Below are positions 11,150-20,835 of a DNA stretch of 64,000 nt, piece by piece. Each line of letters opens with the position of its first letter. Positions within the stretch are counted from its first letter, which is position 1. Both the position numbers and the translations under genes were made by a program. The notes under the pieces were generated by a model. The model did not search any database. It was not told the DNA's origin and worked only from the letters and a program-made list of their open reading frames with translations. The DNA is from Escherichia coli O127:H6 str. E2348/69 (GTDB lineage: Bacteria; Pseudomonadota; Gammaproteobacteria; Enterobacterales; Enterobacteriaceae), in the NCBI RefSeq assembly GCF_000026545.1, contig NC_011601.1, one strand, 5' to 3'.

Positions 11150-11834
11150 ATGGGGGATATTATGCGTCCCATTCCGTTTGAGGAACTTTTGACGCGCATA
11201 TTTGATGAATACCAACAACAACGCTCAATCTTTGGTATTCCCGAGCAACAGTTTTACTCACCCGTAAAAAGTAAAACTGTTAGCGTCTTCGGTGAAACCT
11301 GTGCCACTCCCGTCGGCCCTGCCGCTGGCCCGCACACGCAACTCGCGCAAAATATTGTCACTTCCTGGCTGACTGGCGGACGCTTCATCGAACTAAAAAC
11401 CGTCCAAATTCTTGACCGTCTGGAGCTGGAAAAGCCCTGTATCGATGCCGAAGACGAGTGCTTTAACACCGAATGGTCTACCGAATTTACCCTGCTTAAA
11501 GCCTGGGATGAATACCTCAAAGCCTGGTTTGCCCTGCACCTTCTCGAAGCGATGTTCCAGCCTTCTGATTCCGGTAAATCGTTCATCTTTAATATGAGCG
11601 TCGGTTACAACCTCGAAGGTATTAAGCAACCGCCGATGCAGCAGTTCATCGACAATATGATGGACGCATCTGACCATCCGAAATTCGCTCAATACCGCGA
11701 TGCACTTAATAAGCTACTCCAGGATGAGGCATTTTTAGCCCGCCACGGATTGCAGGAAAAACGCGAAAGCTTGCAAGCCTTACCCGCTCGCATCCCCACC
11801 AGCATGGTACAAGGTGTTACCCTCTCCACCATGC
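11150..11834 (+). pseudogene. ygfK: ygfK 5' fragment (native codons 1-228), interrupted by IS insertion
   Basis: ORF MGDIMRPIPFEELLTRIF ends ...LSTM then reads PVS-stop from the IS end. Confidence 0.85.
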
Positions 11835-13384
11835 CTGTCTCTTGATCAGATCTCCTGATCAAGAGACTTCATCACCAGGTAACCCTCAACCATATCCTGA
11901 AGTCTGAACCAGCCATCCCACATGACTACCCAACCGGGGCGACCGGTGCGTTTGCTGTCATGCCATCGCCCCAGTTTCGCCAGTTTCAGACAGGCCCATT
12001 TCAGTGTCGGCATCTGTGACGGAAGCGGTTTTCCTTCCAGCTTAACCCACAGCAGTTTCCACTCTGTCGGCGTCAGTATTTTCTCACAGCTGTCATTTTG
12101 TGTTTCTTCACTGATACCGCCCTGCCGCAGGCCCAGCACCCGCACCGCGATAAACGCCTTGATAACCACCATGCGCTCGAGGTTATCCCGGGTCTGCATT
12201 CGCAGCGATTCCACACATGTACCACCACTTTTCCACGCCTTGTGGTATTCCTCTATCAGCCAGCGTCGCTCGTAATGGCTGACGATACGTCGCGCATCGG
12301 CGGCACTCGCCACTTTTTCTGACGTCAGCAGATGCCAGCAGGCGCCGTCCTCTGCCTGCTCCCGGCAACAGACATACGTGAGCGGGAGCGCCTGGCCGCT
12401 GTTGTCGGGATTTTTTATGCTGACTTCGCTGTAACTGATGAACATCCGGGCCTGGCGGGCTGCCCGCCCGCCTTTTTGCATCACATTCAGCGTGTGGCTT
12501 CCCGCGGTTGCCAGGACTTCCGGCAGTTCGAAGAGCTTGCCGGGTGCTTCTTCCAGCCGGCGATTCTGTGCTGCACGCACCACGAAGCGCTGCCCGTGGC
12601 TGACTTTATAATGCAGGTAATGCCAGATATCCGCTTCCCGGTCACAGACAGTGATTACCCGTTTCTGTATCTCCCCCAGCCGTTCGGCCATGCGCTCCGA
12701 AGCCTGCTGCCAGCGGTAACTTTCTTTTTCTTCATAGGGACGTTCTTTTCGCTGGTGCTTAACACCGTAGGTGTCCGTGGCACGACTCCAGCGCTGCTGT
12801 TCGATAAGACCGACTGGCAGGGCGCTGTCGGGGGCGTACATCAGGACAGAGTGAGCCAGCAGCCCGCGCGTCTTCGGGTTAGTGGTGGTATTCCCCAGGT
12901 CATCAGATGCCGTACTGTGACTGAAGTTAATGGTGGTGGTGTCTTCCAGCGCGAGGAGCAGCGGATGAGCCTCACATGCCCTTACAGTGGCGGTAAATCC
13001 GGCTTCGGCAATGGCTTGCGGGGACACAGACGGGTTACGTATCAGGCGGTACGCACCTTCAACCTGAGCAGTGGACTGGGATGATTTCACAATAGAAAGA
13101 CCTGCATGCTGAGCGAGAGAAGAGGCCAGTGACACAAGGCGTCGTGTACGACGCGGATCACCGAGACGGGCATGTCCAAACTGCTCGTTAGCCCATGAAT
13201 AACAATCAGAAAGTACCATAACAGACCCGAAGAAAATGAAATATAAGAGAAGATCAACAGGTGAGGAAAAAGTTCAAAAAATCGCTGCCGGGGAGGAAGG
13301 AAACTACCGGATGGAAAGAGTCCCCCTAAAGCAGACTGACAGACATCACAAATCCCCGGGTGGGGATTTGTGTATAAGAGACAG
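11835..13384 (-). mobile_element. IS4-family, IS50-like insertion sequence (1550 bp) flanked by 9-bp direct repeat ccaccatgc
   Basis: Left end ctgtctcttgatcagatct (IS50 inside-end-like, three GATC sites); right end ctgtctcttatacacaaat on opposite strand (outside-end-like); direct repeats at 11826-11834 and 13385-13393. Confidence 0.9.
11846..13219 (-). CDS. DDE transposase, IS4 family (Tn5/IS50 Tnp-like, divergent)
   Basis: 457-aa ORF with LGDPRRT, LEDTT, VCDREADI, RWLIEEYHKAWKSG, DSKRTG motifs matching Tn5 transposase blocks; stop codon lies inside the inside-end repeat. Confidence 0.88.
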   Translation of the reverse strand: MVLSDCYSWANEQFGHARLGDPRRTRRLVSLASSLAQHAGLSIVKSSQSTAQVEGAYRLIRNPSVSPQAIAEAGFTATVRACEAHPLLLALEDTTTINFSHSTASDDLGNTTTNPKTRGLLAHSVLMYAPDSALPVGLIEQQRWSRATDTYGVKHQRKERPYEEKESYRWQQASERMAERLGEIQKRVITVCDREADIWHYLHYKVSHGQRFVVRAAQNRRLEEAPGKLFELPEVLATAGSHTLNVMQKGGRAARQARMFISYSEVSIKNPDNSGQALPLTYVCCREQAEDGACWHLLTSEKVASAADARRIVSHYERRWLIEEYHKAWKSGGTCVESLRMQTRDNLERMVVIKAFIAVRVLGLRQGGISEETQNDSCEKILTPTEWKLLWVKLEGKPLPSQMPTLKWACLKLAKLGRWHDSKRTGRPGWVVMWDGWFRLQDMVEGYLVMKSLDQEI

Positions 13385-17968: not shown

Positions 17969-20835
17969 TCATCCACTTTACTTTAAATGGCGCGCCTCAG
18001 GAGCTAACCGTTAATCCAGGCGAAAACGTGCAAAAGCTGTTGTTTAACATGGGAATGCACTCTGTACGCAACAGTGATGATGGTTTTGGGTTTGCCGGTT
18101 CTGACGCAATTATCTTTAACGGTAATATCGTTAACGCGTCCTTGCTTATCGCCGCACAGTTAGAGAAGGCAGATATTCGTACCGCAGAATCTCTGGGCAA
18201 ATGGAACGAGTTAAGTCTGGTTCAACAGGCCATGGTTGATGTTGGCGTGGTGCAGTCTGGTTATAACGATCCAGCTGCGGCTCTGATTATCACCGATCTT
18301 CTCGATCGCATCGACGCACCTACCCGCGAAGAGATCGACGACGCGCTCTCAGGTCTGTTTAGCCGCGATGCTGGCTGGCAGCAATACTATCAGGTCATTG
18401 AACTGGCGGTTGCACGTAAAAATAATCCGCAGGCCACCATTGATATCGCTCCGACTTTCCGTGACGACCTTGAAGTCATTGGCAAGCATTATCCTAAAAC
18501 TGATGCCGCGAAAATGGTGCAGGCAAAACCCTGCTATGTTGAAGACCGCGTAACGGCTGACGCCTGCGTCATTAAAATGTTACGTAGCCCACACGCTCAC
18601 GCACTGATTACTCATCTGGATGTCAGCAAAGCTGAAGCCTTACCGGGCGTCGTTCACGTTATTACTCACCTGAATTGCCCGGATATTTACTATACCCCGG
18701 GTGGTCAGAGCGCACCGGAACCATCACCGCTTGACCGCCGTATGTTCGGCAAGAAAATGCGTCACGTCGGCGATCGCGTTGCTGCGGTAGTAGCCGAAAG
18801 TGAAGACATTGCGCTCGAAGCACTGAAGCTCATCGACGTTGAATATGAAGTGCTTAAGCCGGTAATGTCGATTGACGAGGCAATGGCGGAAGATGCGCCT
18901 GTCGTGCACGATGAACCGGTGGTGTATGTTGCTGGTGCGCCAGATACTCTGGAAGATGATAACAGCCATGCGGCCCAGCGCGGCGAGCATATGATCATCA
19001 ACTTCCCGATCGGTTCTCGCCCACGCAAAAATATCGCTGCCAGTATTCATGGTCATATTGGCGATATGGACAAAGGCTTTGCCGATGCCGATGTGATCAT
19101 TGAGCGAACCTATAACTCAACGCAGGCGCAGCAGTGCCCGACTGAAACACATATCTGCTTTACCCGTATGGACGGCGATCGTCTGGTGATCCACGCCTCC
19201 ACCCAGGTACCATGGCACTTACGCCGCTAGGTCGCGCGCCTCGTGGGCATGAAACAACATAAAGTTCATGTCATTAAAGAACGTGTAGGCGGCGGTTTTG
19301 GCTCTAAACAGGACATCCTGCTGGAAGAAGTGTGCGCCTGGGCAACTTGCGTGACCGGGCGTCCGGTACTTTTCCGCTACACCCGTGAAGAAGAGTTTAT
19401 TGCTAACACCTCTCGTCACGTAGCGAAAGTCACCGTCAAACTGGGCGCGAAAAAAGATGGTCGCCTGACGGCAGTGAAGATGGATTTCCGCGCCAACACG
19501 GGTCCTTACGGTAACCACTCACTCACCGTACCGTGTAACGGACCGGCGCTGTCGCTGCCGTTATATCCATGCGATAACGTCGATTTTCAGGTCACCACCT
19601 ACTACAGCAACATTTGCCCAAATGGTGCTTATCAGGGTTATGGCGCGCCGAAAGGTAACTTCGCTATCACCATGGCGTTAGCGGAACTGGCGGAACAATT
19701 GCAGATCGACCAACTGGAAATTATTGAACGTAATCGTGTACACGAAGGGCAGGAGTTGAAAATTCTCGGTGCGATTGGTGAAGGTAAAGCGCCGACATCC
19801 GTTCCTTCCGCCGCCAGCTGCGCACTGGAAGAGATCCTGCGTCAGGGTCGCGAGATGATCCAATGGTCTTCACCAAAACCGCAAAATGGTGACTGGCACA
19901 TCGGTCGCGGCGTCGCCATTATCATGCAGAAATCGGGTATCCCAGATATCGATCAGGCTAACTGCATGATCAAACTGGAATCAGACGGTACCTTTATCGT
20001 TCATTCTGGCGGTGCGGATATTGGTACTGGTTTGGATACTGTGGTGACGAAACTGGCAGCAGAAGTGCTGCACTGCCCCCCGCAGGACGTGCATGTTATC
20101 TCCGGTGATACCGATCATGCGTTGTTTGATAAAGGCGCATATGCCTCGTCCGGTACTTGCTTCTCGGGTAACGCTGCGCGTTTGGCAGCGGAAAATCTGC
20201 GGGAGAAAATTCTGTTCCACGGTGCGCAAATGTTGGGTGAGCCAGTGGCAGATGTCCAACTAGCAACGCCGGGCGTCGTACGCGGCAAGAAAGGCGAAGT
20301 TAGTTTCGGGGATATTGCCCATAAAGGCGAAACCGGCACAGGCTTTGGTTCACTGGTGGGAACTGGCAGTTATATCACGCCTGATTTCGCCTTCCCGTAT
20401 GGCGCAAACTTTGCTGAAGTTGCCGTCAACACGCGTACGGGTGAAATCCGCCTGGATAAATTCTACGCCTTGCTGGATTGCGGTACACCGGTCAATCCAG
20501 AGTTAGCGTTAGGACAAATCTACGGTGCCACCCTTCGTGCAATCGGCCACAGTATGAGCGAAGAAATCATTTATGACGCCGAAGGTCACCCGTTAACGCG
20601 TGATTTACGCAGTTACGGCGCACCGAAAATTGGTGACATTCCGCGTGATTTCCGCGCTGTGCTGGTGCCGAGCGACGATAAAGTCGGCCCATTCGGGGCG
20701 AAATCGATCTCGGAAATCGGTGTAAATGGCGCCGCTCCGGCGATTGCTACCGCAATTCACGATGCCTGCGGCATCTGGTTACGCGAATGGCATTTCACAC
20801 CGGAGAAAATACTCACCGCGCTGGAAAAAATATAA
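17965..20835 (+). pseudogene. xdhD: xdhD (molybdopterin/Fe-S hydroxylase) interrupted by in-frame TAG at 19228-19230
   Basis: Two ORFs in the same frame (17965-19230, 19243-20835); 421 + 1 + 534 codons = 956, the expected full length; [2Fe-2S] N-terminus and Mo-binding C-terminus. Confidence 0.85.

Follow-up and report, generated by a model that had tools for sequence, protein, structure and literature searches.

The ygfK-ssnA-ygfM-xdhD operon of Escherichia coli O127:H6 strain E2348/69, an enteropathogenic E. coli (EPEC), carries two lesions of separate origin, an amber codon in xdhD and an ISEc13 insertion sequence (IS) in ygfK. The operon belongs to a gene cluster for anaerobic urate degradation and was examined in a 64,000-nucleotide (nt) stretch of contig NC_011601.1 (the window, from whose first letter all positions are counted). 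Comparison with related genomes placed the amber codon before the IS, and the state of the locus is probably explained by stepwise, essentially neutral erosion of the urate degradation module after the first knockout.

The 10-kb region around the lesions was 100% identical to the E. coli O127:H6 (EPEC) E2348/69 chromosome NZ_CP059840.2. In that record, the Prokaryotic Genome Annotation Pipeline (PGAP) annotates ygfK as two pseudogene fragments (“incomplete”) with an ISEc13 transposase gene between them and xdhD as a pseudogene (“internal stop”). An initial annotation of the window had reported both lesions within positions 11150 to 20835, a span that runs exactly from the ygfK start to the xdhD stop, and both were confirmed at the level of single bases and seen again in independent assemblies. 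It had also described the accessory genes, the transporters, and guaD as intact, with which PGAP and a lesion caller of our own agreed: ssnA, ygfM, and all neighboring genes have protein accessions in PGAP, the flanks from ygeW to uacT are intact, and the lesion caller found ssnA, ygfM, and the flanking genes intact. Both broken genes are already marked as pseudogenes in RefSeq; the decay itself is known, ordinary strain-level pseudogenization. New here are the sequence in which the lesions arose, the finding that the amber codon lies in a Dcm context and recurs, the corrected enzymology, and modest evidence for erosion of the module.

The cluster encodes a reductive, oxygen-independent route of uric acid degradation (Li et al. 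2025, PMC12507026). XdhD, which copurifies with a roughly 30-kDa protein taken as YgfM, reduces urate to 2,8-dioxopurine (yanthine); the flavoenzyme YgfK, with its iron-sulfur (Fe-S) clusters, and the amidohydrolase SsnA dearomatize and open the ring in steps 2 and 3; and HyuA, YgeW/YqeA, YgeY, and YgeX complete the route to pyruvate and ammonia (PMC12507026). The window holds this whole cluster (xdhD-ygfM, ygfK, ssnA, hyuA, ygeW, yqeA, ygeY, and ygeX) in canonical order and with the genes and orientation of the published system, from which E2348/69 differs by xdhD Q422* and ygfK::ISEc13. The first two enzymes are thus predicted to be inactive, and the cluster to be nonfunctional, in E2348/69. 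The initial annotation had taken the two damaged products for subunits of one hydroxylase complex, an assignment that has to be replaced: XdhD(-YgfM) carries out step 1 and YgfK step 2 (PMC12507026), so that the lesions strike consecutive enzymes. The label “selenium-dependent molybdenum hydroxylase” goes back to a comparative-genomic proposal in which YqeB (TIGR03309), YqeC (TIGR03172), and YgfJ/MocA (TIGR03310) were assigned as accessory proteins (Haft and Self 2008, PMC2276186). The corresponding genes yqeB, yqeC, and mocA are intact in the window and adjoin the molybdenum hydroxylase genes. Older PGAP names of the type “selenate reductase subunit” disagree with the biochemistry now reported (PMC12507026). 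The 2-nt gap between ygfK and ssnA and the 4-nt overlap of ygfM and xdhD are consistent with cotranscription of the four genes.

Queried with short diagnostic sequences, 3 of 5,426 complete E. coli genomes, namely, the three E2348/69 assemblies, had the amber allele, and the same 3 had the IS-ygfK junction; among the 5,175 complete genomes carrying the codon-422 site, the amber codon occurred only in E2348/69. Many independent draft assemblies reproduce both lesions, with some contigs ending at the IS boundary because the IS is a repeated element. The exact 421-amino-acid (aa) XdhD fragment was looked up in 15 billion proteins, and the encoding contigs were then retrieved. Among these was GCA_049977505.1 (L008, equal to L059), which differs from the window at 9 to 10 positions over approximately 23 to 25 kb and carries the amber codon together with an uninterrupted ygfK (1,032 aa). 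It shares with E2348/69 the derived A at position 1524, the ygfK T258A allele, and a patch of 13 single-nucleotide polymorphisms (SNPs) in the 3′ part of xdhD; position 1524 is G in the outgroup 2022H047 and in wild-type clone-mates. In the clone-mates of the L057 and L058 groups (approximately 15 contigs), codon 422 is CAG and ygfK is intact. The ssnA Y41H substitution is private to E2348/69, with tyrosine in every other haplotype examined, including L008.

Since the amber codon is common to E2348/69 and its IS-free sister GCA_049977505.1, it predates the IS. The most parsimonious reconstruction from these haplotypes places the amber mutation in the ancestor of the two genomes, with ISEc13 and ssnA Y41H probably acquired later, in E2348/69 only; that the sister genome instead lost the IS by precise excision is much less likely. 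Two independent lesions within one operon and pathway had been proposed in the initial annotation and are borne out by these separate origins, and the order across related strains, which it had suggested comparing, is amber first and IS second. A lineage-wide amber codon, considered from 96 contigs with a D783-type XdhD C-terminal fragment, was rejected: that fragment is a common non-B2 sequence and had sampled unrelated broken xdhD alleles. The derived 1524A lies in the presumed ribosome-binding region of ygeW and may lower translation of YgeW, which acts in the same pathway.

By Pfam mapping, the amber codon sits inside MoCoBD_1 (residues 355 to 590), and MoCoBD_2 (residues 639 to 893) is lost; the proposed active-site residue Glu606 falls downstream of the stop (PMC12507026). 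Open reading frames (ORFs) remain for both halves of xdhD, one of 421 aa and a C-terminal one of 528 aa from position 19249. The activities of both XdhD and YgfK are predicted to be lost in E2348/69. Recoding of the stop as selenocysteine or pyrrolysine was considered and rejected; the codon is TAG, and with no in-frame TGA at the position, it is not a selenocysteine codon. E. coli is not known to have a pyrrolysine system. The 13-SNP patch downstream of the stop, a stretch imported by recombination, is common to the E2348/69 clone (L008, L057, and L058), is absent from other B2 haplotypes, and in protein sequence matches the common non-B2 XdhD C terminus.

The insertion in ygfK was mapped by alignment to strain 2022H047, which is the nearest intact relative among the complete genomes. 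The IS splits ygfK after nucleotide 685 of 3,099, and the target sequence CCACCATGC is present in single copy at the empty site (intact relative L003). The 5′ reading frame extends into the IS by 11 nt, so that an ORF of 231 aa spans 11150 to 11845. The 3′ fragment retains the Fer4_20, Pyr_redox_2, and C-terminal Fe-S domains (residues 453 to 955) and lacks the first 227 residues of an N-terminal region of approximately 450 residues that has no match in the Pfam mapping and that has been modeled as bearing the flavin mononucleotide (FMN) substrate site (PMC12507026). The target-site duplication recreates an in-frame ATG (Met228), and the 805-aa product that begins there once had the RefSeq accession WP_000546005.1.

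ISEc13 occupies approximately 29 to 30 places in E2348/69; the copies compared were 100% identical, and the ygfK copy matches exactly the araE-adjacent copy and the two carried by the derivative E2348/69 variety 2. Among genomes with any match to the 10-kb query, the median is one matching place, the locus and the IS being counted together. The transposase has precomputed Pfam matches to PF14706 and PF01609 (weak). In its DDE transposase, 9-bp duplication, short inverted repeats, and multiple identical copies, the element resembles other IS4-family/IS50-like elements, and ISEc13 itself shows no unusual features; a tandem head-to-tail pair in variety 2, outside the window, is unusual. Long hairpins lie just inside both ends (left, 11835 to 11875, GTCTCTTGATCAG/CTGATCAAGAGAC; right, 13345 to 13384, ACAAATCCCC/GGGGATTTGT), and the end sequences presumably resemble closely the inside-end and mosaic-end sequences of Tn5/IS50.

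A consensus scan of the IS found a strong terminator-like hairpin with a stem of seven G-C pairs on the operon strand and no sigma-70-like promoter match reading out of the right end toward the ygfK remnant. The IS is plausibly polar on ssnA-ygfM-xdhD, with the internal hairpin as a candidate cause; polarity would cost the pathway no further flux, steps 1 and 2 being lost in any case. Matches to a sigma-54 promoter upstream of ygfK were no commoner than chance, and none was convincing.

The wild-type context of codon 422 is CGC-CGC-CAG-GTC, and the change from GCCGCCAGGTC to GCCGCTAGGTC converts CCAGG to CTAGG at the internal C of a Dcm site. This C is normally methylated, and deamination of 5-methylcytosine in such a setting is the classical amber-hotspot configuration; it is a probable cause of the xdhD amber codon. 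Amber hotspots at Dcm sites in lacI were reportedly described by Coulondre, Miller, and coworkers in 1978. The likeness to lacI lies in the C-to-T change at the internal C of CCAGG, the in-frame CAG, and the recurrence in xdhD on at least five haplotypes; xdhD differs in that the evidence is population genomic rather than from mutation rates, the apparent enrichment is modest, and Dcm methylation in these strains is presumed; the dcm locus is not within the window.

Of approximately 52 sites in xdhD at which a transition makes a stop, 3 are Dcm sites (Q414, Q422, and W459); the stop recorded at W459 is TGA, not a Dcm-type change. Q422* was found on at least five unrelated haplotypes, comprising the E2348/69 clade, L004/L006, L007, L010, and the K-12-like pair L065/L069. 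Between L007 and strain MCJCHV-1, only the amber base differs over 21,266 bp, and between L010 and Nissle 1917, the amber base and one contig-end base differ over 13,555 bp; with such matches to wild-type haplotypes over 13 to 21 kb, spread of the amber codon by recombination was rejected as the main cause of its recurrence. Q414*, at the neighboring Dcm site, had three independent origins. Hotspot counts were based on verified, haplotype-independent stop alleles, which replaced raw contig counts. In the B2 screen, six events fell on 3 Dcm paths and three on 10 non-Dcm paths (P = 0.007); the apparent Dcm enrichment in the combined screens had a P value of 0.03 and overall was approximately 3- to 7-fold by screen (verified independent events). 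Much of the recurrence is due to deep sampling and weak purifying selection.

Raw contig hits to hypothetical truncated XdhD proteins, in which products for all 3 Dcm sites turned up and those for 7 of 8 controls did not, were discarded; they were mostly genes cut at contig ends. Dozens of Logan/ENA contigs (L020 to L027 and L029 to L037) end exactly at xdhD codon 414 or 459 (approximately positions 19204 and 19339). No contig ends were found at seven control codons, and no natural SNP was found at the codon-414/459 contig ends. These ends may come from C/T heterogeneity within a sample, from an error-prone CCACCCAGG motif, or from mixed strains.

Second lesions in the cluster were sought with our lesion caller, which was applied uniformly and gave the same calls as PGAP on 16 annotated loci. 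The wild-type sample consisted of 12 systematically sampled genomes and four close relatives, to which two wild-type clone-mates were added for a total of 18; the null sample consisted of 10 independent lineages null for xdhD in which 13 or more genes were covered. Three further assemblies (L066, L068, and L070) were excluded for many scattered 1-bp deletions and are probably of low quality. In the 16 wild-type genomes, a single lesion was found in 17 cluster genes, a ygfS stop in O157:H7 strain PA2. A second cluster lesion was present in 6 of 10 xdhD-null lineages (listed in Table 1) and in 2 of 18 wild-type genomes (P = 0.011). When only core-pathway or accessory genes were counted, the numbers were 4 of 10 and 0 of 18 (P = 0.010). 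This excess supports erosion after the first knockout. Over the 6.6 kb compared, the four null lineages without a second lesion stood 0 to 7 differences away from a wild-type haplotype (in L007 and L064, the stop was all that set them apart), and so they look recent. Relaxed selection and adaptive loss had both been offered in the initial annotation; the former gains support from the order of the lesions and the excess of second lesions in null lineages, and the latter is without support, the lesions being private and rare.

The yqeC gene was independently inactivated in two unrelated xdhD-null lineages (L004/L006 and L065) and in 0 of 18 wild-type genomes. This hints that XdhD may be the main or only client of YqeC, the proposed selenium-cofactor accessory protein. 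Genomes of O157:H7 background (PA2, i.e., L051, positions 21964 to 22452; also L066 and L070) share a TAA stop at codon 29 of ygfS, a small Fe-S protein gene adjoining ygfT, which is annotated for formate-dependent urate utilization. Here a separate lesion affects the nearby urate-related operon of a different pathogen lineage. An apparent O157:H7 frameshift seen in 8,126-bp matches was rejected as an intergenic 1-bp difference, the strains concerned carrying the ygfS internal stop instead.

Taken as a sequence of events, neutral erosion would have begun with the C-to-T change at the Dcm site in the ancestor of E2348/69 and GCA_049977505.1, through which XdhD would have lost its molybdopterin-binding part and the strain the conversion of urate to yanthine. 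ISEc13 would then have expanded to approximately 29 copies. With XdhD dead and the later enzymes without substrate, the copy that entered ygfK would have come at no further cost and been kept; it probably also ends transcription of the operon before ssnA-ygfM-xdhD. In the laboratory subline variety 2, finally, the ygfK copy and the copy near araE would have removed the 22.5 kb between them. A broader reading takes Q422*, joined by Q414* at the neighboring Dcm site, as a recurrent Dcm-site null by which the first step of the gut-relevant urate pathway is turned off each time, after which dependent genes (ygfK, ssnA, hyuA, and, twice, yqeC) erode; it is tentative and rather doubtful, and in its stronger version, xdhD loss would be favored in some gut niches. 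Accumulation of pseudogenes at the level of whole pathways is known in enterobacteria with an expanded IS content or a restricted niche, for example, Shigella, Salmonella Typhi, and Yersinia pestis. The E2348/69 locus is like these in that a first null was followed by an IS insertion and an IS-mediated deletion in the same module and in its expanded IS copies; it differs in that one operon in one strain is concerned and the clone keeps the module, which makes it incipient, strain-level decay rather than lineage-defining decay.

Several observations weigh against stepwise erosion as the explanation. When partly covered contigs were counted, the excess of second lesions became 6 of 16 versus 2 of 18 (P = 0.11), and the comparison is small and mixes PGAP-annotated complete genomes with draft contigs. 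Two clone-mates with wild-type xdhD have purine-cluster lesions of their own, guaD Q347* in L058 (the ERR180830 group; equivalent to position 23456) and an in-frame 3-bp xanQ deletion in L057 (equivalent to 21478 to 21480), from which it follows that selection on the purine cluster may be relaxed clone-wide regardless of xdhD. As to the hotspot, non-Dcm stops recur too (W417* with three origins and Q542* with two), so that the Dcm effect, which is modest, should not be overstated, and the first hotspot control read too high on account of genes cut off at the ends of contigs. The IS itself may date from the 1969 patient isolate or from early culture.

That the two lesions, in a strain saturated with ISEc13, are an unrelated coincidence, or a product of relaxed selection across the clone or in E. 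coli generally under which the IS in ygfK was tolerated whether or not xdhD was dead, is unlikely. Random placement of 29 IS copies would put at least one in the 8.1-kb operon with a probability of approximately 4.7% and in the 28-kb cluster with approximately 15%; in the approximately 81 kb annotated around the locus, four independent lesion events were found, and the chance that two of the four fall in different genes of one four-gene block is approximately 0.2. The two-hit coincidence alone is therefore not statistically compelling. The L057 and L058 lesions beside a wild-type xdhD point the same way, as do nonsense alleles at several xdhD sites in many backgrounds, which suggest weak purifying selection. 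Against this, the operon, present in 5,184 of 5,426 complete genomes, is structurally whole in 5,168 of the 5,184 and was free of lesions in all 16 sampled wild-type genomes, which argues for ongoing purifying selection, and core-pathway or accessory lesions were confined to xdhD-null lineages. Adaptive loss, with null alleles selected in a pathogen niche, for example, by sparing molybdenum/selenium cofactor costs or reducing equivalents, is quite improbable. It would fit the presence of Q422* in at least five backgrounds, the recurrence of other xdhD stops, and the further cluster lesions that build up in null lineages. The recurrence, however, sits at a known kind of mutational hotspot, and the null alleles are rare: most clone-mates are wild type, the amber codon is restricted to E2348/69 among complete genomes with the site, and several null alleles are 0 to 1 SNP from a wild-type haplotype, very young and unspread. 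A second hit in a dead pathway, moreover, offers selection nothing, and a literature search turned up no paper tying xdhD loss to adaptation.

Retention of function, through readthrough or suppression of the amber codon or through active pieces of XdhD (421 aa and 528 aa) and YgfK (805 aa), is highly improbable. The surviving ORFs for both xdhD halves, the in-frame ATG supplied to YgfK by the duplication, and the RefSeq accession once given to the 805-aa product would allow it; the break in XdhD falls within a single folded domain, MoCoBD_1, no promoter-like site leads out of the IS toward the ygfK remnant, PGAP calls both genes pseudogenes, and amber suppressors are not to be expected in natural isolates. 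A sequencing or assembly artefact in one or both lesions deserves practically no credence. Nothing in the three complete assemblies and the drafts compared spoke for it, and the occurrence of identical lesions in these three and in many independent short-read assemblies means that the lesions are not artefacts. Stepwise, essentially neutral erosion after the xdhD knockout thus stays the probable reading of the locus.

Table 1. Features of the ygfK-xdhD locus in the window and second cluster lesions in xdhD-null lineages
Feature	Position	Strand	Details
G-to-A change upstream of ygeW	1524	+	GGGA to GAGA, 7 nt upstream of the ygeW ATG at 1531; derived state only in E2348/69 and GCA_049977505.1
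ygfK 5′ fragment	11150-11834	+	Codons 1-228 plus one base
Target-site duplication, left copy	11826-11834		9 bp, CCACCATGC; from alignment
ISEc13 (IS4 family)	11835-13384	-	1,550 bp; antisense to the operon; inverted repeats CTGTCTCTT at both ends
ISEc13 transposase gene	11846-13219	-	457 aa; PGAP “IS4-like element ISEc13 family transposase,” WP_000244358.1
Terminator-like hairpin in the IS	12454-12481	+ (operon strand)	GGCGGGC-TGCCC-GCCCGCC, then TTTTT; from consensus scan
Target-site duplication, right copy	13385-13393		CCACCATGC; holds in-frame ATG (13390), ygfK Met228
ygfK 3′ fragment	13385-15807	+	805-aa ORF from Met228 (13390-15807)
ssnA	15810-17138	+	Intact; private nonsynonymous Y41H (T to C at 15930)
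ygfM	17189-17968	+	Intact; flavin adenine dinucleotide (FAD) subunit partnering XdhD
xdhD pseudogene	17965-20835	+	956 codons; internal stop
Amber TAG, Q422*	19228-19230	+	C to T at 19228; CAG in all intact relatives
13-SNP cluster, 3′ part of xdhD	20211-20541	+	One nonsynonymous change (E783D); lineage marker
Second lesion, E2348/69			ygfK::IS
Second lesion, L008	21266-21269 (equivalent)		xanQ frameshift; 4-bp TCAG-repeat deletion
Second lesion, L004/L006	10057 (equivalent)		yqeC frameshift; 1-bp deletion
Second lesion, L065			yqeC stop at codon 210
Second lesion, L069			Deletions affecting hyuA and ygfK-ssnA
Second lesion, L063			ghxQ frameshift

In E2348/69 variety 2 (LT827011), and likewise in EPEC1 (LT903847), which was engineered from it, two ISEc13 copies stand head to tail with a 0-bp spacer (L002, positions 3002 to 6101, NZ_LT827011.1; L044, NZ_LT903847.1; equivalent to position 11835 of the window and upstream). 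The joined copies are the ygfK IS and the copy that lies between kduD and araE in CP059840.2, and the intervening 22.5 kb is gone, including kduD, kduI, yqeF, yqeG, actS, xdhABC, ygeV, ygeW-yqeA, yqeBC, mocA, and the 5′ part of ygfK. Because variety 2 keeps two copies, simple homologous recombination, which would leave one, does not account for the junction; transposase-mediated inside-end excision and an assembly artefact are the candidates. Elsewhere in the window, at 56748 to 58656 (record positions 890401 to 892309), three features adjoin in the PGAP annotation: srsR, truncated; a hypothetical fragment; and scpA, the gene for methylmalonyl-CoA mutase, likewise truncated. The arrangement resembles the scar of a deletion in which most of the propionate operon scpA-argK-scpB-scpC was lost.

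The reference EPEC strain is E2348/69, in which steps 1 and 2 of reductive urate degradation are predicted not to work. This matters where the strain serves for studies of host urate homeostasis, of selenium-dependent molybdoenzymes, or of the metabolism of purines or urate, and common variety 2 derivatives lack a further 22.5 kb that includes xdhABC and downstream pathway genes. The broken state is strain specific and is not representative of the O127:H6 clone. The locus offers a small, clean example, nothing new in kind, of how one hotspot nonsense mutation can free a whole module from selection. If the reading of Q422* as a recurrent null were true, the cluster would amount to a natural replicated experiment in pathway decay and would provide genetic evidence that YqeC serves XdhD specifically.

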